A stretch of DNA of 64,000 bases from Betaproteobacteria bacterium (GCA_027492485.1 JAPUER010000079.1:161844-225843); one strand, 5' to 3'; positions 2,065 through 40,947 are shown, counted from the first letter of the stretch. The notes: generated from the letters alone by a model not told the origin. Translations and numbers: made by a program.

Positions 2065-3837
2065 CTAGCCCCGTGCGTTGCGTGCGGCCGGCGCCGCGCC
2101 GAACAGCTTCTGCCACCAGGTGCGGGTGTCGGCGGGCGCTGCCGGCTGCACGTCGCCGCTCCTTGCCGGAACCGGTGTCACGTTGCCGCTGTCGGCGCCC
2201 ATGCGGTCGATCTCGGCCATCGACCAGCCGGTGAGCTTGGCCAGCGTCTGCTTCTCGCGGGCGAGGCGTTCGGGCAGTTCGCGTTCGTAGTAGCGGGTGG
2301 CCGTCTCGATGGCGCTGCGCTTGCTGTCGCTGCAGGCCTTGAGGCAATCGCTCTGCAGCGCGTCGGATGATTTGTTGGCGTAGTCGCCGAGCGGTCCCCA
2401 GTTGTTCTTTTTTGCCTCGCTGACCATGCGCTCGACGTCGCCGACACGGCCTTTGCACATCGCCTCGCAATCGGCCTTCGCGGTCGTCGCCGTACAGGCC
2501 GCGACCGAGCCGGCGTAGGGGTTCTGGATCACGTAGCGGGTCTGGAAGTTCTGCTTGTCCTTGGTCTGCGTGAACATCAGGTCTTCCGGGAAGGTGTTGG
2601 CGGTGTAGCGCACGTGCAATCGGGTGAGCATCACCGGTTGCGCGCCGCCGACGGGCGGCACCGGGCGCGGCAGGATGCGCGGCGGTGACGTCTGCATCGG
2701 CGGTGCGATGGCCCCCTGCGGCGCTTTTGCGGCCGCCGGCGCCACTTGCAACTGCTGGAAATTGCTGGCTTCGTCGCCGCCGACCCAGAACACGCCGGCC
2801 TTGCGCAGCTCTTCGGTGCTGAGCGGATTGGCGGCGCAGGGGTCGCACCAGCCCATGTCCCAGAAATATTCGGTGAACACCACCTTGTAGTCCTCGCGCG
2901 CGGTCGAGCTATCGTAGAGCGCCTTGTAGAACTCCTTGAACTTGGGCTTGACGAACGGCGGCAGGTTTTCGTTGGCGGCGAGCTTCACCGTGCGGTAGTT
3001 GCTGCTCTCGACGCGGCCGTTCTTGGTCAGCACGTAAACGATCAAATCCTGCGGCTTGTTCGGCGGCGCATTGAGCATGCCCAGCCGCATCGGCAGCATG
3101 AATTTTTCGCTCTCGAAGGCGAACTGCAACGGCCGCAGCATGCTGTAGCCGAGGCGTTGCTGCTCCTTGAGGTTGACCTTGGCGACGAAGAACTTCATGC
3201 CCATGTTGATGTAGGGCTTGAGCGCGGCAGAGGCACCCTTCGGGATCTTGTAGCCGTTTTCGCGCAACCAGATTTCGAGGCCGTCGGACTGCTTCGCCGA
3301 CAGCGAGACGATGTCGTACTCCTCCAGCGTGTAGGCGGCTTCGACGGTAACGCCGAGCGCGGCATCGCGCGCCTTCGCCAGCTCCTGGCGCATAGCGCCG
3401 GCCGCGGCCGCCATCGGCGCCGCCATTGTCCGCGGATACACGTTCTGACCCCACCAGAAGTTCATGCGGCAGGGGTCGCTGTCGTGGTATTCGGCGAGCC
3501 GCGGGCTGGAATAGGCATCGAGCCGTTCGAAGGTGGCCTTCTCGGCGACCCGCACCTGCCCTTGCTGTAACGTGGTCGGCGTCGGCACCACCAGCGCAAA
3601 TTCGCTGAGCGGGCCGGAGTAGTCGTTGAGCATCGACAGCACGGTGCGGTTGCCGTCGCGCACCAGCACCACCTGGCTTGCTTCGTTGAACAGGCTGGCG
3701 TCGGCCTTGCCGGCGTAGAAACCGCAGAAGGCACTGGCTTGCGGCGCGGCGGCACCCAGCGCCACGGCGGTGGCGGCGAGCAGGGCATGGATGAAACGTC
3801 GGGGCCGGCGACGGGCGCCGGACGGTTGATGGCTCAT
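2065..3837 (-). CDS. DUF2330 domain exported protein
   Basis: Signal peptide then AFCGFY...ASQVVLVRDG...EFALVVP, SPRLAEYHDSDPC, MKFFVAKV, LPMRLG and WDMGWCDPC motifs. Confidence 0.85.
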   Translation of the reverse strand: MSHQPSGARRRPRRFIHALLAATAVALGAAAPQASAFCGFYAGKADASLFNEASQVVLVRDGNRTVLSMLNDYSGPLSEFALVVPTPTTLQQGQVRVAEKATFERLDAYSSPRLAEYHDSDPCRMNFWWGQNVYPRTMAAPMAAAAGAMRQELAKARDAALGVTVEAAYTLEEYDIVSLSAKQSDGLEIWLRENGYKIPKGASAALKPYINMGMKFFVAKVNLKEQQRLGYSMLRPLQFAFESEKFMLPMRLGMLNAPPNKPQDLIVYVLTKNGRVESSNYRTVKLAANENLPPFVKPKFKEFYKALYDSSTAREDYKVVFTEYFWDMGWCDPCAANPLSTEELRKAGVFWVGGDEASNFQQLQVAPAAAKAPQGAIAPPMQTSPPRILPRPVPPVGGAQPVMLTRLHVRYTANTFPEDLMFTQTKDKQNFQTRYVIQNPYAGSVAACTATTAKADCEAMCKGRVGDVERMVSEAKKNNWGPLGDYANKSSDALQSDCLKACSDSKRSAIETATRYYERELPERLAREKQTLAKLTGWSMAEIDRMGADSGNVTPVPARSGDVQPAAPADTRTWWQKLFGAAPAARNARG

Positions 3838-3967
3838 GATCTCTCCTGGGGACGGGATGAGCAGGTTGTAACGAACCAGGACGACAGGCGGGGTTAGTGC
3901 CGCGCCAGATTTTTTACCGAAATTCCATCGGTGCCCGGCTTCGCGACGCCTGTTTCGGGCCGCCGCA

Positions 3968-4304
3968 ATGGCTTTCAGATTTTCAGATTGGCAACGTGGC
4001 TCAACAACGGCATGGTACGTGTCGCGCTCGCCGGGGAGGGTTGGGGTGGGGTAAGAAAGTGGCGGTAGCTTTCATGTCGGCTCTCCGGCGAGATGCCTTA
4101 CCCCCTCCCAGCCTCCCCCGGCAAGCGGGGGAGGGGCGTCCCGGTCACTCCGCGCTCGGATGCTTGGCCAGCGTTCCAATCATGTCAGCTTTTCACCAAA
4201 AACCTCATTCCAATTGGGCTTGCAAGCTGAAATGACCATCTGTCGACTTCTCATGAAAACTGGCCCTACGTCCAATGGAATAGACGTTGGAGCAAAAAAG
4301 CTGA
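3968..4304. repeat. Dyad intergenic element copy A (composite: degenerate arm, REP doublet, full 120-bp unit at 4185-4304)
   Basis: TCAGCTTTT-N12-CATTCCAATTGGGCT-N7-TGAAATGA-N6-GTCGAC(4242-4247), then 57 nt ending AAAAGCTGA; aligns with 34219-34537 on the opposite strand. Confidence 0.8.
4024..4138. repeat. REP-like inverted doublet (CCCTCCCC...GGGGAGGG class)
   Basis: GGGGAGGGTTGGGGTGGGGTA ... TACCCCCTCCCAGCCTCCCCCGGCAAGCGGGGGAGGGG; closely matches the reverse complement of 34333-34453, spacer included. Confidence 0.85.
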
Positions 4305-4367
4305 TGCCGCCAAACCGTCCGTCGCCGGCACATGGCACGGCCGGGCGGCCACTGCGCCGGACCAGTT

Positions 4368-6059
4368 TTAAGCCCAGATCACCGGGCCTTTCTTGCTGTA
4401 CCAGGCGTCGACCCCCGGCGCCACCGCTGCCTCGATACGGGCGCGCTTGATCTTCATGGTCGGCGTCAGGCAGCCGTTGTCGATGGTCCACGGCTCCGGC
4501 GCCACCACGAACATGCGCAGTTGCTCATAGTCCGCGAGCGCGTTGTTGACCTCCGCCAGCAGCGCACCGAGATTGCTGTTGACCTCCTCGCGCACGCCCG
4601 GCTCGGTCACCCGCGGGCGCAGATCTTCGGCCAGCACCACCACCGCGTAGGCCGCCTGCTGGCCGACGCCGGACACCATCGACAGTTCGATCATCGGGTG
4701 TGTGTTGATGCGGTTCTCGATCGGCGCCGGCGCGATGTATTTGCCCTTGCCGGTCTTGAACAGTTCCTTCTTGCGGCCGGTCAGTTTGAGCAGGCCGTCG
4801 GCGCGCACTTCGCCGAGGTCGCCGGTGCGGAAGAAACCATCAACGGTGAAACATTCGGCATTCAGCTCCGGCTGCTTGTAATAGCCGGCGAGCTGCCCCG
4901 GCGACTTGATCAGCACTTCGCCCTCGTCGCTGATGCGCGTCTGCACCCCCGGCAGCGGCGAGCCGACATAGCCCGGTGCGTTGAGCTTGATCGACGAGGT
5001 GTTGGAGTAGGCGAAGTCCTCCGTCATGCCGTAGCCCTCGACCAGGTTGAGGCCGAGCTTGCGGTACCAGGCGATGAGTGCTGCCGGGATCGGCGCCGAG
5101 CCGCTGCCGGCATGCTTGACCGAATCCAGGCCGAGACCGCGCAGCACCTTCTTGCCGACCAGTTTGCCGACGATCGGCAGGCCGAGCAGGAAGTCGAGCT
5201 TTTTTGCCGGCATCTTGGTGAAAACGCCTTGTTGGAACTTGAGCCACAGTCGCGGCACCGAGACGAACACCGTTGGCCGTGCGCGCTGCAAGTCGGCGAC
5301 GAAGGTCTCCAGCGCCTCGGCGAAGAAGAGGTGACCGCTGCCCTCGACCATCGCCGCGCACTCGATCCAGGCGCGCTCGAACACATGCGCCAGCGGCAGG
5401 TAGGACAGGATACGGATTTCCTCGGTCGGCCCGATGGCGCCGCGAATGTTGCCGACGATGCCCTCGGAGGCGCGGGTGACGCGGTCGAAGCGGTGCATCA
5501 CGCCTTTCGGCTGCCCGGTGGAGCCGGAGGTGTACATCAGCAGCGCGATGTCGTCCGCCGCACGGCCGGGCTGTCCGGCCAGCGGTTCGGTGCGGGCCAC
5601 GACCGAGTCCCAGGTGTCCATGCCGGAGCGCGCCGAATCCGGCGCCAGCGGGAAGGCGATGCAGGGCAGATCGTCGCGCACGGCGCTGGCCTGCTGCGCC
5701 CAGGTGTCGAGCTTGCCGACGAAGAGCATGCTGGCGCCGCTGTGATCGAGCACGTAGCGGATGGTGTCGGCGGTTTCGGTCGGGAAAATGGCCACCGTGG
5801 TGCAGCCCGACATCCAGATCGCCAGCTCGGCCATGAAGAAGTGCGCGCAGTTCTTCGACAGGATCGCGATGCGCGCGCCCGGCTCGAAGTTGCGGCTTTT
5901 GATGAAGGCGGCCATGCGGCGCGCCTGATCCATCGTCTGCCGCCAGGTGTAGTCCGCCACCGCGCCGCCACCGGTCGGCTGCGTGAGCCACAGATGGTTC
6001 GGCCGCATTGCCTCGTGCGCGTAGATGTAATCGAGAATGAGTTTGTTGTTGTCGGCCAT
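4368..6059 (-). CDS. Long-chain fatty acyl-CoA synthetase (AMP-binding)
   Basis: YTSGSTGQPKG, LSYLPLAH, EGYGMTE and FFRTGDLG motifs; start trimmed to MADNNK. Confidence 0.92.
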   Translation of the reverse strand: MADNNKLILDYIYAHEAMRPNHLWLTQPTGGGAVADYTWRQTMDQARRMAAFIKSRNFEPGARIAILSKNCAHFFMAELAIWMSGCTTVAIFPTETADTIRYVLDHSGASMLFVGKLDTWAQQASAVRDDLPCIAFPLAPDSARSGMDTWDSVVARTEPLAGQPGRAADDIALLMYTSGSTGQPKGVMHRFDRVTRASEGIVGNIRGAIGPTEEIRILSYLPLAHVFERAWIECAAMVEGSGHLFFAEALETFVADLQRARPTVFVSVPRLWLKFQQGVFTKMPAKKLDFLLGLPIVGKLVGKKVLRGLGLDSVKHAGSGSAPIPAALIAWYRKLGLNLVEGYGMTEDFAYSNTSSIKLNAPGYVGSPLPGVQTRISDEGEVLIKSPGQLAGYYKQPELNAECFTVDGFFRTGDLGEVRADGLLKLTGRKKELFKTGKGKYIAPAPIENRINTHPMIELSMVSGVGQQAAYAVVVLAEDLRPRVTEPGVREEVNSNLGALLAEVNNALADYEQLRMFVVAPEPWTIDNGCLTPTMKIKRARIEAAVAPGVDAWYSKKGPVIWA

Positions 6060-34698: not shown

Positions 34699-36753
34699 AT
34701 GATCTGTCCATTGCACCGAACCTTGCGACATCTGGCAGCGTTGGTCGCCTTGAGTTTGCCGCTGACGGTGACGCACGCCACCTACACCATCACCGGCGGC
34801 CCCGGCCCGGCACCGGTCAACGCGACGACGCCGAACGCGGACTACGCGCAGCTCGACGCCATCATGACCCAGTTCATGCAGAACGCGAACGTGCCGAATG
34901 CCCAGCTTGCCGTGGGCCACGGCGGCCGCATCGTCTTCGTGCGCGGCTACACCGCGAGCACCACCGAGCGGCCGTTGCAGACGATCACGGCGACGGTCAA
35001 TTCCGTTTCCCGCACCTACAACGAGCCGGCCTACCAGACGACGCAGCCGAACAGCCGCTTCCGCATGGCCAGCCTGTCCAAGCTGGTCACCGGCCTGGCC
35101 ATTCAGCAACTGGTGCTCGACGGCAAGCTTGCGATGACCGATTCCGCCTACGCTATCCTGCGCGAAGACCCGTCCACCACCGCCTTTGCCGGCGCGCCGG
35201 CGGACGCCAACATGCTCAACGTCACCGTCAAGCATCTGGTCAATCACGAATCGGGGATCGCACGCGGCGCCCCGCTCGCCACTCCGGCCGGCCAGCCGCA
35301 GGACATCGTCGACTACGCCGATCCGCCGGGCACCGTGAAGCCGTGGCCGTACCCGTACAACGTGGCGACGATTCAGGAGTGGGTCAAAACCTGCAAGCGC
35401 CATGTCGAAATCGATCTGCCACGGCGCAAGCTGCACTATGTGCCGGGCAGCCCGCCGCAGCAGAGCGGCGCCTACTATCAGTACTACACCAACATGGCCT
35501 ACTGCTGGGCGGAGCGCGTCATCGAAATCCGCTCCGGCATGAGCTACGAGGACTACGTGCTGGCGAAAGTGCTGCGGCCGCTCGGCATCGACAAACCGCG
35601 GCTGGCGCAGAACGACAACATGGCGCGCTGGTACACGGCCGACAGCGCCAACGCCGAGGTCAACGCCTACTACGACCAACCGATTGCCGCGAACCCGGCG
35701 GCGACGCTGTACGCCAACTGGTGCGCGCTGTACGAGAGCACGCCGGCGCCGCCCGGCTGCGTCGGCCCGCGCCCGAACAACTATCGCGCCCACGACTACG
35801 GCGGCGCCGGCGGCTGGGTGTTCTCGGCGCAGGAGTACCTGCGCATGCTGCAAAGCGCCAAGCTGCGGTTGCGGGCGCCCTACCTGCTGGACTTTCCGGC
35901 GAGCAACGGCAGCGGTTCCGATTCGTTGTTCGAAGGGCCGACGCTCTCCAGCGGCACCAGCGGCAGCAACAGCTTCAGCTATCGCTACAGCTATGGCGCC
36001 GGCGTCACCGAGTGGCGGGTGACGGCCAGCAATCAATTGCTTGGCTACTTCGTAGCCCACACCGGCAGCCTACCCGGCGCCCGTTCGTTCTACCAGCTCG
36101 ACGACGTGACGCCGATGAACTGGGTGGTGGTGCTCAACACCAGTCCGGACTGGGACTATGGCTCGTGCAGCAGCACGACCACCGTTCCGGCGGCGAGCAA
36201 ATACTGGTGCCTGCTGCAGGGCAACCGCGTCAGCGAAAACAACGGCGCCACCATCACCGATCCGAGCGCGTCCAACTCAATCTTCACCCAGATGCGCGCG
36301 ATCTACGGCAATGCCGCCAAACGCGCACAGCTGGAAGCCGCCGCCGACGTCTGGGCGGACCAGATCGCGTTGCCCTGCAACCTCGATGTCAATGCCGGCG
36401 GCGCCGGCAATGGTGCCAGCAACGGCGTCGCCGACGGCTTGATGATCCTGCGCGCCATGCAGGGCGGGCGCGGTGCGAGCATCGCGGCCAGCGCCGTCGG
36501 GGCCACGTCGGCGGGCACGACGACCTTTGACCGCGCCGAAAAGAACGCCCGCGACCTCGTTTCGACGCGCGTGGTCGACCTCGACGGCGATGGCGTGGTC
36601 GCCCCGGCGCTCGACGGCGTGCTGCTGCTGCGGACCATGCTCGGCATGCGCGGCGCGGCGGTCACCGGCGGCCTCACCATTGCCGGGCTGCGCAACGACT
36701 GGACGTCGATCCGAACTTACCTGAACACGCGCTGCAATGCGGCGTTGCCATGA
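34699..36753 (+). CDS. Secreted serine hydrolase (beta-lactamase/PBP fold) with C-terminal dockerin-like module
   Basis: Signal peptide; FRMASLSK (SxxK), YTN (YxN) and HTG motifs; from 36376 a duplicated CNLDV..DGLMILRAM / DLDGDG..DGVLLLRTML..YLNTRC module. Confidence 0.85.
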   Translation: MICPLHRTLRHLAALVALSLPLTVTHATYTITGGPGPAPVNATTPNADYAQLDAIMTQFMQNANVPNAQLAVGHGGRIVFVRGYTASTTERPLQTITATVNSVSRTYNEPAYQTTQPNSRFRMASLSKLVTGLAIQQLVLDGKLAMTDSAYAILREDPSTTAFAGAPADANMLNVTVKHLVNHESGIARGAPLATPAGQPQDIVDYADPPGTVKPWPYPYNVATIQEWVKTCKRHVEIDLPRRKLHYVPGSPPQQSGAYYQYYTNMAYCWAERVIEIRSGMSYEDYVLAKVLRPLGIDKPRLAQNDNMARWYTADSANAEVNAYYDQPIAANPAATLYANWCALYESTPAPPGCVGPRPNNYRAHDYGGAGGWVFSAQEYLRMLQSAKLRLRAPYLLDFPASNGSGSDSLFEGPTLSSGTSGSNSFSYRYSYGAGVTEWRVTASNQLLGYFVAHTGSLPGARSFYQLDDVTPMNWVVVLNTSPDWDYGSCSSTTTVPAASKYWCLLQGNRVSENNGATITDPSASNSIFTQMRAIYGNAAKRAQLEAAADVWADQIALPCNLDVNAGGAGNGASNGVADGLMILRAMQGGRGASIAASAVGATSAGTTTFDRAEKNARDLVSTRVVDLDGDGVVAPALDGVLLLRTMLGMRGAAVTGGLTIAGLRNDWTSIRTYLNTRCNAALP

Positions 36754-36973
36754 CGCCGAAATGGACGGGCCCGCTGCCATGCGCCGCATCATGGCAAATC
36801 CTACCTGTATCGGCAGGAATTGTTCTCGCCGCCGACGCTGCCGTTCGCGTAAAAAACATTTGATTAGTGACTTGCCTCAGACAAGCAGGGCGCACGCAAA
36901 GGTATGGGTGTGCAGTGCATCGCGCCGTAACCGGGACAACGACGAAATGACACGCCGAGACGCGCTCCATGCA

Positions 36974-37092
36974 GTGGCTTTCCGCTAAAAGCGGCATCGG
37001 CATTTGGTTTGCCGCGTATTTCGACAACAGTCAACTTTTTGATTTTTCAGCGATTACGCTCGATGCCCAAGCGCATTTCGCTAAAAAGCTGC
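36974..37092. repeat. Dyad intergenic element copy E (diverged)
   Basis: GTGGCTTTC-N12-CATCGGCATTTGGTT...GTCAAC(37030-37035)...57 nt ending AAAAGCTGC. Confidence 0.6.
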
Positions 37093-37350
37093 TGCGAACA
37101 ATGAGCCAAATCGCAGTTCGTCCGCTATTGCATGCAACGGGCTGTTCCGCCGGTTTCGTCGAAGAGCTACCGGCGGCGGTGTTGCGTAAAGTGCATGACG
37201 CCGGCATAATGGCGACGTCATGGCAGAAACCAGAAACTGCATGTTTATTTGCGTCGGTTTGACGGGTTTGGCACGTGAAATACGTCTATCGACAATGTGG
37301 CGACAACCGTGCACACGTAACCCGTTGCCGGCGAGAAGCGCTTGAACTTC

Positions 37351-37379
37351 TTCACAATTCACTTTCGCTTGTGTAGCAT
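37351..37379 (+). promoter_or_regulatory. Putative sigma70 promoter of the cohesin-like operon
   Basis: TTCACA-17 nt-TAGCAT with upstream TG (extended -10), about 22 nt before the start codon; AGGGG RBS-like site. Confidence 0.45.
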
Positions 37380-37401
37380 GGTATCGATTAGGGGCCTCAA
37401 C

Positions 37402-38499
37402 ATGCATATGAAGACAATTCGCTCGCTTGCATACACCGGTTTGATCGGGCTCACGACGCTGGCGGCCACGACGGCGATGTCCGTGCAGGCGGCTCAGGTG
37501 CTGAAGCCCAAGAGCACTGCGGGTGCCGTGCTCGCCTCGCAGGATGGCGCAGGCACGATCAGCGTGCCCATTGGTCAGACGTTGTACTTCGACATGGAAT
37601 ACAGCGTGACCGGTAACCAGACCAAAGATGAGGCGGGTATCGGCCTCAAAGTCGGTTATGACACCAACTTCTTCGACTTGGTGGTGCCGACCACGGCGGT
37701 CACCGCGTTGCACACCAAGTGCATGATCGCCTCCCCGAGCGATCAGGCCGCGACCGGCACATTGCGCGAAGTCGTGTTTGGCTGGATCGACACCTCGATT
37801 CGCACGACACCGACTGCTGGCGCTGTAGGTTGGCCTGGCACGGCTGACCCCGCTGCCCCCGGCGCCACCAACGGCTGCCTCAATCCCGGCAGCATTGTCA
37901 CCGAGAGTGGCGCGCTGATGGCCAGCAACGCGGCCACACTCAACTTGTTCCGCATTGGTCTGAAGGCCAAGAGCTCCGGCCTGACTGTGGGCTCATCCAC
38001 CAGTACCGTGACTATCAATACTGCGGGGAATATTTCGTACGCCAGTACCGGCAACGCGGACACTAGCAAGACTATCAATGTTGTCGCTGCTGCGGCACCG
38101 GCTTGTAATTTGGATGTGGATGGCGACGGACAGGTATTGGCCGCGAAGGATGGGATACTGCTCCAGCGGGCACTTAATCCAAACGTGAGCGACGCCAATG
38201 TTGTCGCAGGGATCACAATAACTGGTTCGCGCAACACTGGCGCACTGATCCGTCAGTATCTCAATACATTCATGAGCGGTGTTGGTGTTGCCGCAAACAT
38301 CGGCCCATCGGTTCTAGATGTTGACGGCAATAGCTCGACGACATCGGCCGTGGACGGTGTCGCCATTAAGCGCGCCCTCAACGTAAACGTTTCCGCTGCA
38401 AACGTCGTGGCAGGCCTGTCGTTGGCCGCCGGTACCACGGGTCAATCCGTTAGGCAATACCTGAATAGCACATGCGGCCTGAGTTTGCCGACCAACTAA
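37402..38499 (+). CDS. Secreted cohesin-like plus dockerin-like adaptor protein
   Basis: Signal peptide; GQTLYFDMEY..AGIGLKVGYDT..VFGWID..NLFRIGLKAK cohesin-like beta-sandwich; from 38104 duplicated LDVDGDG..DGILLQRAL / LDVDGN..DGVAIKRAL..YLNSTC. Confidence 0.72.
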   Translation: MHMKTIRSLAYTGLIGLTTLAATTAMSVQAAQVLKPKSTAGAVLASQDGAGTISVPIGQTLYFDMEYSVTGNQTKDEAGIGLKVGYDTNFFDLVVPTTAVTALHTKCMIASPSDQAATGTLREVVFGWIDTSIRTTPTAGAVGWPGTADPAAPGATNGCLNPGSIVTESGALMASNAATLNLFRIGLKAKSSGLTVGSSTSTVTINTAGNISYASTGNADTSKTINVVAAAAPACNLDVDGDGQVLAAKDGILLQRALNPNVSDANVVAGITITGSRNTGALIRQYLNTFMSGVGVAANIGPSVLDVDGNSSTTSAVDGVAIKRALNVNVSAANVVAGLSLAAGTTGQSVRQYLNSTCGLSLPTN

Positions 38500-38523: not shown

Positions 38524-40947
38524 ATGAAAAATATTTTTCTTCGATATGCGCGCCGCGCGTTTTTGTTGGCATCGGCGGCGGCTACGTTGTCCGCGTGGGC
38601 GCAGGTCGACGGCGTGGCAACGTCACCATTAAAGGTTTATGCCGGGGTTGGTGGTACGTATTCGTTCACGGTGACGTACACGGCGCCAACGCCTGCGACG
38701 TCGAATACGGACCTTTTGATTTCCTACACGACCAGCACGTCCTCGCCATCGATCACGCCATATGCGTCATGCATTGATTCTGGCACGTCACCATCACCTT
38801 ACGACGGTAATCAGCCAAACACCAAGTATGTATTTTGGGATGCGGGATTGAGTCTGTTCCCTTCTGCTGCTGCGTGTGGTGGACAGACGGGATCCATCGC
38901 GTTGGCTACGTTTACCGGTACTGTTGCTTCGTTTCCGGCTGGCGGAAGTTTTATAGTTGGAGTGTGGAACAACAACTCCGCCGGTGCTACGAATGATGTA
39001 GCCAACGACGTTACCGTGTGCCAGAAAACCACAGTGGCTAGCGTTACAGCTCCTGCCGACGCGTTCGAAGGCACAGCTCAAACGTTCACGGTGAACTTCG
39101 CGGCGGCGGTTCCTGCCGGTTGTGGCGGTTTCGCCATTCCGGTCGCGTTGTCGGGTACGGCAACGGCTGCGCCGGACAATGTCGCGATCACCACCAACAA
39201 TTGCAGCAACGTCGCCGACGGCCAAGCCTCCTGCACCGTCGTGGTTCAGGGGACGGACGACAACGCTGCCGATGGCACCAAGATCGCCACGCTGACCGTG
39301 ACCGATAGCACCGCAGCATCGGTTTACGTCTCGACGGGCAAGTCCGCAAACGCCAACGTGCTCGACAATGAAATCAGCGCAAGCGTCGTGGCAACTACCG
39401 CGAGTGCGTCTGAAACCGGCCCGGTCAACGGTGTGTTCACCTTCTCTCGCGGCGGCGCCACAACGGCGAGCTTGAATCTGACATCCGCGATCTCGGGTAC
39501 AGCGACGTACACGACCGATTACTCCATCACCGCTGGTACCTGCACTATCGTCTCGCAGAGTGCGTCTTCGATTGTGGTCACCGTGCCTGCGGGCAGCTCG
39601 TCATGTACCGTGAACATTGTTCCGGTGGACGATATGGCGATCGAAAGCGCCGAGACGGTCGTGTTTGCACCGCCAACGGGTACCAACGTCACGTCCTCGG
39701 GTACGAACGCGACCGTGACGATCGCCGACAACGACGCATTGCCGTCGATCAACATCACCACCGCCGGCACTTGCGCGGAAGACCTGACGCCGACCAATTG
39801 CACGTTTACGGTAACGGCAACGAGCAATACCAGTCCGGCGCAATCCGGTTCCGGCCCAAGCGTTCCGTTCGTGCTTTCCGGGACTGCGACCAACAACACG
39901 GACTACAAATTGGTGCTTGGTGCCGACTGCACTGCATCTGCGTTCACCGGGCCGATCGCCACCACTTATGGCACCCCCACCGTGATGACCGTTTGCGTGA
40001 TCGACGACTCGGCGCAGGAGGGTTCGGAGACCGTTGTGATGACGCTTACCGCGAATGCGGCGCAGTACACGCTGACGACGGCGGCGGCGACACAAAATAT
40101 CGCCGACGACGATTCCCCGCAAGTGGTCACGGTCGCTTCGTCCGGCAACCCGGCGGAACAGGGTTCGGCGACGGGTACCTTCACCTTTACTCGCACCGGC
40201 GGCAGCACCGCGGTGAAACAGGCAGCGCTGACGGTCAACGTGACGCTTGGTGGCACGGCAACGTTTGGCACGAGCTGCGCGGCCGGTGTTGACTACCAGT
40301 TGGCAGCGGTTGGCCCGGCAACGGCATCCCTCGCTGCGGCGCCTCGCACCATCACCTTCCCGGCGGGCAGCCCTGCCGTGTCGACCGCGGCGGTCACGGT
40401 GACACCATGTGACGACACGGTCGTTGACCCGAACGAAACGGTCACCATGACGGTAGCGGCACCGAACGCCGCTACCGATTACACCGTCGGTGCCGCGCCC
40501 GGTAACAGCGCGTCGCTAACCATCATCGACAACGAGGTCGGTGTATCGGTTGCCGGAACCGGCGCAGTCGAAGGCAACAATGTGTCGTTCGCCATCACCT
40601 GCACCGGGCCGGCCATGTCGAGCGCTACCGTGAACTTCGCGATCAGTGGCCAGGATTCGGGCGCAACGGTGACGCCGGCTCAAGGCCCGGTGACCGTCAA
40701 CTGCGGTACGCCGACAACGGTGACCGTCAGCACGACCAACGACACCACGGTCGGTAACAACCGCTCCGTGACGATCACGCTGAGCAACCCGGTTGCGCCG
40801 GCGATACTCGTCACGGCTACCGCGTCCGCAGTGGTGGCCGACAACGATCAGCCGCTCACGATCCCGACGATGGGGGTCGCCGGTCTCGGCCTGATGAGCC
40901 TGATGCTCGCCGGCCTGGCTGCGTTCCAGCGCCGTCGTCGCGGTTGA
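38524..40947 (+). CDS. Surface protein: cohesin-like N-domain, five Calx-beta repeats, IPTL-CTERM-type sorting signal
   Basis: Signal peptide; GGTYSFTVTY..DLLISYTT..VFWD..IALATF domain; five repeats ending ..I.DN[DE]/DDD with SGTAT...DY and DD...E..ETV; C-terminal IPTMGVAG-hydrophobic helix-RRRR. Confidence 0.8.
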   Translation: MKNIFLRYARRAFLLASAAATLSAWAQVDGVATSPLKVYAGVGGTYSFTVTYTAPTPATSNTDLLISYTTSTSSPSITPYASCIDSGTSPSPYDGNQPNTKYVFWDAGLSLFPSAAACGGQTGSIALATFTGTVASFPAGGSFIVGVWNNNSAGATNDVANDVTVCQKTTVASVTAPADAFEGTAQTFTVNFAAAVPAGCGGFAIPVALSGTATAAPDNVAITTNNCSNVADGQASCTVVVQGTDDNAADGTKIATLTVTDSTAASVYVSTGKSANANVLDNEISASVVATTASASETGPVNGVFTFSRGGATTASLNLTSAISGTATYTTDYSITAGTCTIVSQSASSIVVTVPAGSSSCTVNIVPVDDMAIESAETVVFAPPTGTNVTSSGTNATVTIADNDALPSINITTAGTCAEDLTPTNCTFTVTATSNTSPAQSGSGPSVPFVLSGTATNNTDYKLVLGADCTASAFTGPIATTYGTPTVMTVCVIDDSAQEGSETVVMTLTANAAQYTLTTAAATQNIADDDSPQVVTVASSGNPAEQGSATGTFTFTRTGGSTAVKQAALTVNVTLGGTATFGTSCAAGVDYQLAAVGPATASLAAAPRTITFPAGSPAVSTAAVTVTPCDDTVVDPNETVTMTVAAPNAATDYTVGAAPGNSASLTIIDNEVGVSVAGTGAVEGNNVSFAITCTGPAMSSATVNFAISGQDSGATVTPAQGPVTVNCGTPTTVTVSTTNDTTVGNNRSVTITLSNPVAPAILVTATASAVVADNDQPLTIPTMGVAGLGLMSLMLAGLAAFQRRRRG

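Follow-up and report, generated by a model that had tools for sequence, protein, structure and literature searches.

The stretch of DNA analysed here, 64,000 nucleotides from Betaproteobacteria bacterium (GCA_027492485.1 JAPUER010000079.1:161844-225843; hereafter the window), carries three neighbouring genes that are the subject of this paper. The first encodes a secreted serine hydrolase of the beta-lactamase fold (the enzyme), the second a protein in which a cohesin-like domain is followed by a dockerin-like double module (the adaptor), and the third a long stalk protein with a putative surface-retention tail (the anchor). All three proteins start with an N-terminal Sec-type signal peptide. 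An earlier note on this DNA had proposed that the adaptor module and the module at the end of the enzyme differ in binding specificity, the former being received by the anchor and the latter by the adaptor. In a comparison of related loci the type of the adaptor module was found to go together with the class of the N-terminal domain of the anchor, and it is mainly this association that is considered here as a possible sign of specific docking. The coordinates of the genes and their parts are collected in Table 1.

Table 1 Features of the enzyme, adaptor and anchor genes in the window (aa, amino acids; HMM, hidden Markov model; AF2, AlphaFold2; pLDDT, predicted local distance difference test)
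Feature	Position	Strand	Basis
Enzyme gene (P0003, 684 aa), secreted serine hydrolase of beta-lactamase fold	34699..36753	+	Pfam PF00144, E 3.4e-28
Enzyme C-terminal double module (CNLDVN...ILRAMQG...FDRAEKNARDL...LLRTMLG...YLNTRC)	36376..36750	+	unit HMM, 6e-4 and 6e-19
Adaptor gene (P0006, 365 aa)	37402..38499	+	ATG 37402, stop 38497-38499; database gene call identical
Adaptor signal peptide, Sec-type (MHMKTIRSLAYTGLIGLTTLAATTAMSVQA)	about 37402-37491	+	translation
Adaptor N-domain, cohesin-like beta-sandwich, about 200 aa	37492..38097	+	AF2 model and Foldseek
Adaptor module unit 1 (Cys235, Ca-loop DVDGDGQVLAAKD, helix GILLQRALNPN, ...IRQYLNT)	38104..38268	+	unit HMM, 5e-17
Inter-unit linker (FMSGVGVAANIGP)	38269..38307	+	translation; pLDDT falls here
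Adaptor module unit 2 (DVDGNSSTTSAVD, GVAIKRALNVN, VRQYLNSTC) and short tail GLSLPTN	38308..38496	+	unit HMM, 1e-12
Anchor gene (807 aa)	38524..40947	+	ATG 38524, start 25 nt past adaptor stop; eleven orthologues align full-length
Anchor N-terminal beta-rich domain, class A	38596..39039	+	AF2, about 9 strands; class co-varies with adaptor module type
Stalk of Calx-beta / Ig-like repeats	39040..40860	+	Pfam Calx-beta, 1.1e-6; AF2 all-beta array; Foldseek multi-Ig proteins
IPTL-CTERM-type tail (IPTMGVAGLGLMSLMLAGLAAFQRRRRG)	40861..40944	+	PF18203, 19.8 bits (cut-off 20.8); TIGR04174, 20.1 (cut-off 20.5)

The genome that holds the window measures 4.12 Mb, is distributed over 83 contigs and is 98.9% complete. 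The start of the adaptor gene is shared with 46 orthologues, which align from the same ATG, and the region 38104-38499 comprises the last 131 codons of the gene and its stop codon. This region encodes two tandem units of about 57 residues that are 53% identical over 53 residues (E 6e-17), an internal identity that ranks second highest among the 21 double modules of the genome, and ANVVAG is present once in each half. The near-symmetric repeat described in the earlier note is indeed there, and every motif that it had named was located, both in the adaptor (CNLDVD, 38104-38121; LQRALNPN, 38161-38184; IKRALNVN, 38365-38388; YLNSTC, 38458-38475) and in the enzyme (CNLDVN, from 36376; ILRAMQG, 36445-36465; LLRTMLG, 36625-36645; YLNTRC, 36718-36735). 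The two modules are homologous (49% identity over 53 residues, E 3e-11), and the difference claimed for their predicted recognition helices holds as well, with RALNPN and RALNVN in the adaptor as against ILRAMQG and LLRTMLG in the enzyme. After the first helix the adaptor has RALN[PV]NVS, a segment that is one residue longer than the family consensus LLGLxG. In an AF2 model of the adaptor (m2c96a83ddaa7, 46 orthologues; pLDDT 78, predicted template modelling score (pTM) 0.67), each unit of the module forms three helices with a pLDDT above 90. Cys235 and Cys358 (codon 38473-38475), which flank the module, are invariant in the 46 orthologues and may plausibly form a disulfide that closes it.

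A profile constructed from 57 units (A3) gave as its top matches in the PDB exclusively type I dockerins of C. thermocellum, with 1ohz_B at E 1.8e-4 and 2ccl_B, 2mte_A, 1daq_A, 4fl4_A and 4uyp_B among the others. The alignment covers profile positions 5-28, which correspond to the calcium loop and the first helix, the loop of the unit being one residue longer than the canonical one. Judged from these profile matches and the model, each unit is one dockerin-type calcium F-hand followed by an extension of about 33 residues with two more helices, and the unit is a lineage-specific offshoot that descends from the dockerin repeat and is predicted to work like it.

The N-domain of the adaptor resembles the other half of a cohesin-dockerin pair. 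When its model was compared to the PDB by Foldseek, 29 of the 30 top matches were cohesins (types I, II and III and a cohesin-like module; best 5nrm_A, E 2.6e-6), the sole other match being a CLIPPER domain at rank 17. The E values of these 30 matches range from 2.6e-6 to 2e-4, and the target-normalised template modelling scores are 0.41-0.60 (mostly 0.5-0.6) for single-domain entries and about 0.26-0.35 for multi-domain chains. The claim that the adaptor carries a cohesin-like domain is borne out in this way by the fold, not by a sequence profile. The domain is single-copy in the genome according to an HMM search, occurs in 18 of the 24 congeners sampled, and was found neither in 96 genomes of 11 other genera in the family nor in 147 genomes of the order that belong to other families. 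In two genomes (G226 and G234) the enzyme gene lies at a contig end, so that the adaptor is probably missing there only through a gap in the assembly.

Related loci were compared in 18 other species of the genus and in six contigs from metagenomes or metagenome-assembled genomes (MAGs), the latter being at most 76% identical to the first set. At all 24 loci a stalk gene of the anchor type is located directly downstream of the adaptor gene, wherever the contig continues, and this adjacency persists at three loci where the upstream enzyme genes are absent (L112, L114 and L116). Irrespective of the module type, the N-domain of the adaptor is strongly conserved. The module itself occurs in four types. 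Type A has the RALN motif that is also present in the window, with one symmetric LLGLS variant, and is accompanied by an anchor N-domain of class A. Type B ends in ...IRANVNS[KR]CGTSF and type C reads LDINGN[IL]PSA...INYVN.TC, both being followed by an anchor N-domain of class B/C, while in type D an extra beta domain and then a canonical type I dockerin precede an anchor with an N-domain of class D. Module type and anchor class correspond in 24 of 24 loci. By hhalign, classes A, B/C and D are mutually unrelated, and B and C are homologous with 98% probability.

A canonical Dockerin_1 domain (PF00404) replaces the adaptor module in about a third of the loci, and the type D tails exceed the Pfam gathering threshold of 22.9 bits, with scores of 25.2, 27.0 and 39.9 bits. 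In these genomes the adaptor is the only full-length contiguous match to Dockerin_1 and the enzymes retain the 57-residue unit. The supposition that two module classes exist side by side in one cell is supported by these genomes, as a canonical dockerin on the adaptor and 57-residue units on the enzymes.

On the tree of adaptor N-domains, which covers 19 genomes, the type changes 8-10 times and is as scattered as shuffled labels; G192 (type B) and G182 (type A), for example, have near-identical adaptor N-domains. In pairwise blastn comparisons the homologous stretch extends only 1-33 nt beyond the N-domain, to the AAAPxCNLDVDG junction, and a breakpoint at this domain junction recurs in five genome pairs. 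Between G202 and G258 homology resumes directly after the anchor N-domain, and the replaced block of about 890 nt thus consists exactly of the module and the anchor tip. In other pairs only the final 340-520 nt of the anchor gene are homologous again, or homology resumes in the next gene.

A module and an anchor tip that are exchanged together between conserved flanks, at a position that can also be filled by a bona fide dockerin, are what would be expected for class-specific docking. On balance, we consider it slightly more likely than not from these sequence comparisons that the adaptor module is a specific partner of the anchor tip, and that this pairing is separate from whatever the enzyme modules bind. 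The RALN-type module of the adaptor would bind the N-terminal domain at the far end of the adjacent Calx-beta stalk protein, for which the IPTL-CTERM-type tail would provide attachment to the cell surface, and the conserved cohesin-like domain of the adaptor would hold the modules of the operon's own enzymes, namely the beta-lactamase-fold hydrolase and, in relatives, also a beta-helix protein. Module and anchor tip would form a cassette that is exchanged between species and of which there would be at least three mutually unrelated classes, one using a canonical type I dockerin. Binding of the enzyme modules to the adaptor N-domain can be proposed more tentatively, on the basis of gene order, the cohesin fold and parallel conservation irrespective of the cassette type. 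Such strong conservation is seen in the adaptor N-domain, in the double module of the enzyme, including its odd linker and across genomes with any type of adaptor, and in the single unit of the beta-helix protein.

A further step, which we regard as doubtful, is that this uncultured Burkholderiales genus possesses a non-cellulolytic, cellulosome-like system for surface display in which the adaptor-anchor interface acts as a recombining 'compatibility cassette' in at least three unrelated classes, including the canonical type I dockerin, so that the adaptor of each species, and perhaps of each strain, with its load of enzyme, is tethered to cells of that species or strain alone. If so, these bacteria would hold a natural library of orthogonal pairs, and possibly a means of keeping secreted enzymes private.

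Several observations weigh against specific cohesin-dockerin type docking at this locus. The adaptor module scores 21.3 bits against Dockerin_1 (E 3.2e-4) over one stretch and 17.4 bits for the whole protein, both below the threshold, and some of its paralogues reach the threshold only by summing neighbouring matches. It also departs from the canonical dockerin layout of two adjacent F-hand repeats of about 22 residues, each with a 12-residue calcium loop and a helix, in a total of about 60-70 residues; the F-hands of the adaptor begin 68 residues apart, one per 57-residue unit. The adaptor N-domain has no Pfam match, and the Pfam Cohesin family (PF00963) is not found anywhere in the genome at E ≤ 1. 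For the anchor N-domain, profile searches gave no significant match to PDB or Pfam entries, cohesins included, the best PDB match of the type D domain being a cohesin whose E of 0.23 is not significant. A link between the N-domains of anchor and adaptor was detected neither by BLASTP nor by an HMM search of the genome or hhalign, where the best comparison, class C of the anchor against the adaptor N-domain, reached E 2e-3 at a probability of only 14%. A Foldseek search with the full 807-residue anchor model was swamped by the stalk, all matches being multi-Ig proteins (alpha-2-macroglobulins, integrins etc.). Finally, the phylogenetically independent contrasts that underlie the correspondence of module type and anchor class number 3, 4 and 2 per class, all of them concordant, which is too few for a sign test.

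The moderate divergence of the adaptor module from the other modules of its genome is to be counted among these points too. In a tree of 70 units of the genome (58 columns), which is poorly resolved, adaptor units 1 and 2 are sisters (98/93, stem 0.44) and are nested with no enzyme module, the second unit of the enzyme pairing with a unit of an M10 peptidase (93/91). When 67 units were ranked by the closest match that each has in a different protein, adaptor unit 2 was the second most isolated, at 40% identity, and unit 1 was 16th, at 49%. By these comparisons the adaptor module is distinct within the genome and only moderately divergent. The expectation that it would form an outlier came true to the extent that it has its own supported clade outside the enzyme modules; it is no dramatic outlier.

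Among other explanations, the one that survives best is that no private specificity exists and that the units are paralogous surface-retention or calcium-stabilised domains which share one ligand, for example lipopolysaccharide, an exopolysaccharide or a common receptor. The co-variation of module and anchor tip would then reflect a hypervariable block of DNA for exposed parts that recombines, e.g. under phage or predator pressure. Since the 3' end of the adaptor gene and the 5' end of the anchor gene are contiguous DNA, one recombination tract can move both, and an interaction of the products is not needed, which is a serious caveat to specific docking. In most genome pairs the stalk is also inside the replaced block, the genome lacks a Pfam cohesin as mentioned above, and modules are abundant in genomes that have no adaptor. 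Neither the adaptor nor the beta-lactamase orthologue is present in three congeners of 97-98% completeness, of which G177 has at least 52 modules, G170 has 13 and G187 has 10; in G157, which belongs to another genus, the adaptor N-domain was not detected by profile search either, and the modules number 52 or more. On the other hand, the swap between G202 and G258 involves the module and the anchor N-domain only, with a homologous stalk; five genome pairs have their breakpoint at the domain junction; the adaptor N-domain, presumably the part with the greatest exposure, shows high conservation; and substitution by a canonical dockerin points to docking of proteins. We consider this explanation rather unlikely.

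Because genomes without the adaptor keep their modules, the module family as a whole cannot have the adaptor for its receptor, and a role as a general scaffold for all 47 module proteins of the genome was rejected. The idea of two separate specificities stands in part: the 24 of 24 match between module type and anchor class and the separate clade of the adaptor units are in its favour, and the part of it in which modules at large are received by the adaptor has to be given up.

The 57-residue units may also be thought of as C-terminal tags for export, sorting or folding, comparable to the C-terminal domains of the type IX secretion system or to pre-peptidase C-terminal domains, which would serve a lineage-specific machine for secretion or attachment and of which the adaptor would be mere cargo. 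The units occupy the C-terminus of 44 of the 47 open reading frames (ORFs), are attached to varied cargo, mostly with domains of secreted proteins, have a narrow distribution over the genus of the window (g1) and one other genus, and match no Pfam or NCBIfam model, all of which would suit a tag. However, the three proteins considered here already have N-terminal Sec-type signal peptides, the similarity of the F-hand is specifically to dockerins, a canonical dockerin substitutes at the same position in orthologues, and the class-matched anchor tip would be left unexplained, which makes a tag function improbable. Self-binding of the adaptor, its cohesin-like N-domain receiving the C-terminal module of the same molecule (in cis) or of the next one (head-to-tail), which would give an autoinhibited form or a filament, is suggested by the presence of both parts on one polypeptide and by a pTM that hints at some defined interdomain arrangement, yet was rejected as very improbable, since the two sides of a self-interface would be expected to vary in step, and here a conserved N-domain is combined with modules of unrelated types, one of them a canonical dockerin preceded by an extra beta domain.

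An iterated unit HMM that was run on the stop-to-stop ORFs of the whole genome detected 71 units in 47 ORFs, i.e. the adaptor and 46 others, which is far above chance. The consensus of the unit is C-x-LD[VI]DGDG-x5-TDGLLLLR-x-LLGL-x-G-x-A...R..W..IR.YL...CG, and 36 of the 47 ORFs have a cysteine at both ends of the module. There are one or two units per protein, and about half of the proteins of the family have a single F-hand. The cargo is mostly of the secreted type and includes peptidases (M10, M36, M12B and S8), Kelch, RCC1 and LamG domains, CAP, RHS and transglutaminase proteins as well as the beta-lactamase-fold enzyme. Single units are chiefly found on delta-60/DUF5122 beta-propellers, several of them in tandem gene arrays. 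In four regions of the genome outside the window (C82:13892-21787, C6:20406-27674, C22:6816-10129 and C74:9502-12350) paralogous secreted propellers of the delta-60 (DUF5122) or RCC1 kind are encoded in tandem, with up to five intact genes in series and one fragment, each ending in one cysteine-bracketed unit with the tail YLVSQCGM. A 789-residue protein, likewise encoded outside the window (C79:335839-338205), is the sole one with an N-terminal double module and has the best single Dockerin_1 score in the genome (21.9 bits). All 24 genomes of the genus that were sampled contain the unit, most of them with at least 52 matches and two small genomes with 10-13; outside the genus it was found in one other genus only, among the samples of the order and the family. 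Small secreted proteins that consist of a signal peptide, an N-region of about 70 residues (..SANYALPSS..NSG.G.MAS..YK..SS.GD..) and a double module are encoded in G157 (L082:1114-1860) and G234 (L087:1096-1851), genomes in which no adaptor N-domain was detected, and these proteins may be alternative adaptors.

The enzyme has syntenic orthologues upstream of the adaptor in most relatives. In the MAG JAEUPL01 (G197; L021/L091, about 2900-4983) the orthologue is split into two ORFs of 198-225 and 481 residues, by a frameshift or as a pseudogene, with the module intact. Most relatives further have, between enzyme and adaptor, a gene for a right-handed beta-helix protein of 810-845 residues that ends in one highly conserved unit (CKLDMDGD...NLNANCGT). 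The genome holding the window has no orthologue of this gene, and the gap at 36754-37401 holds no remnant of it.

The gene call supplied with the sequence for the anchor (P0075) gives a protein of only 661 residues, which starts internally and drops the N-terminal domain. At L114 (4400-5700; GCA_016706095.1) the anchor gene following a type A adaptor is frameshifted within and after the class A N-domain, which may be due to a pseudogene or an assembly error; the anchor is still of class A. The tail of the anchor has an IPTL-like motif at the extreme C-terminus, followed by a transmembrane helix and a basic cluster, a layout that is kept in 17 of 17 complete anchors (18 genome loci), with [IV]PT[MLIV]..GLGLMSLMLAGLAAFQRRR as the motif conserved among relatives; one anchor orthologue has a precomputed match to PF18203. 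Four proteins of the genome have IPTL-like tails, the other three being encoded, in oriented coordinates, at C7:110105-111166(-) (353 residues), C15:17025-22958(+) (1977 residues) and C16:171031-173943(-) (970 residues). Exosortase_EpsH (PF09721) was not found in the genome; other sortase classes were not searched.

If the proposed docking is correct, hierarchical cohesin-dockerin assembly would extend to a Gram-negative, non-cellulolytic lineage with another kind of anchor (IPTL-CTERM) and other cargo. It would also mean that an unmodelled offshoot of the dockerins, 57 residues long with a single F-hand and bracketed by cysteines, is carried by most genomes of the genus in about 50 or more copies each, and that nature provides a set of at least three orthogonal docking classes, swapped as cassettes, which may be useful for designer scaffolds.

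The system closest in function is the cellulosome of the clostridia, with its hierarchy of type I and type II cohesin-dockerin pairs (CipA of C. thermocellum with SdbA and OlpB) and its adaptor scaffoldins, such as ScaB of A. cellulolyticus. Solved cohesin-dockerin structures are also among the matches obtained here (1ohz, 4uyp and 5k39). The likeness consists in enzymes with a C-terminal calcium-binding F-hand module, an adaptor that combines a cohesin fold with a dockerin of a different type, and a third protein with a putative anchoring signal; as in cellulosomes, the module class of the adaptor differs from that of the enzymes, giving two classes per cell. The differences are considerable. 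The host is a Gram-negative (diderm) genus of the Burkholderiales, and each adaptor, and each genome, has a single cohesin-like domain instead of a multi-cohesin scaffoldin. The cargo consists of peptidases, propellers, CAP and RHS proteins and a beta-lactamase fold, not of carbohydrate-active enzymes, and the anchor has an IPTL-CTERM-type tail where cellulosomes use SLH domains or sortase. The module is made of two 57-residue units with one F-hand each and flanking cysteines, the Pfam thresholds for Cohesin and Dockerin_1 not being reached, and the adaptor-anchor interface is swapped between species as a cassette.

Noncellulosomal cohesin- and dockerin-like modules occur outside the Clostridia as well. 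In the searchable literature we found no prior description of the adaptor-anchor system discussed here. A parallel comes from the Chlorobiota, where the neighbouring genes Cag_2037 and Cag_2038 encode a cohesin-like and a dockerin-like module, alongside Ig-like stalks, and modelling led to the proposal that they tether a secreted protein to the diderm surface (bioRxiv 10.64898/2026.03.19.712371). Compared to that pair, the present system has three tiers with an adaptor, a genome-wide expansion to 47 ORFs, a noncanonical unit and comparative support for exchangeable interface classes. With respect to stability, the ScaA dockerin of R. flavefaciens is reported to have an intramolecular clasp, contacts inside the dockerin stabilising the module (PMC3821032); the putative cysteine bracket of the units would have a similar effect by covalent means, which would be a different solution.

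The exchange of the interface itself recalls a different group of systems. Polymorphic pairs in which specificity resides in a cassette are known, for example toxin-immunity pairs or other recombining cognate pairs. The locus resembles these in the joint replacement of two adjacent coding segments between conserved flanks and in the occurrence of discrete, unrelated classes in close relatives. Unlike toxin-immunity pairs, it shows no sign of toxicity, and the pair proposed here, the adaptor module and the anchor tip, would be a structural docking interface.

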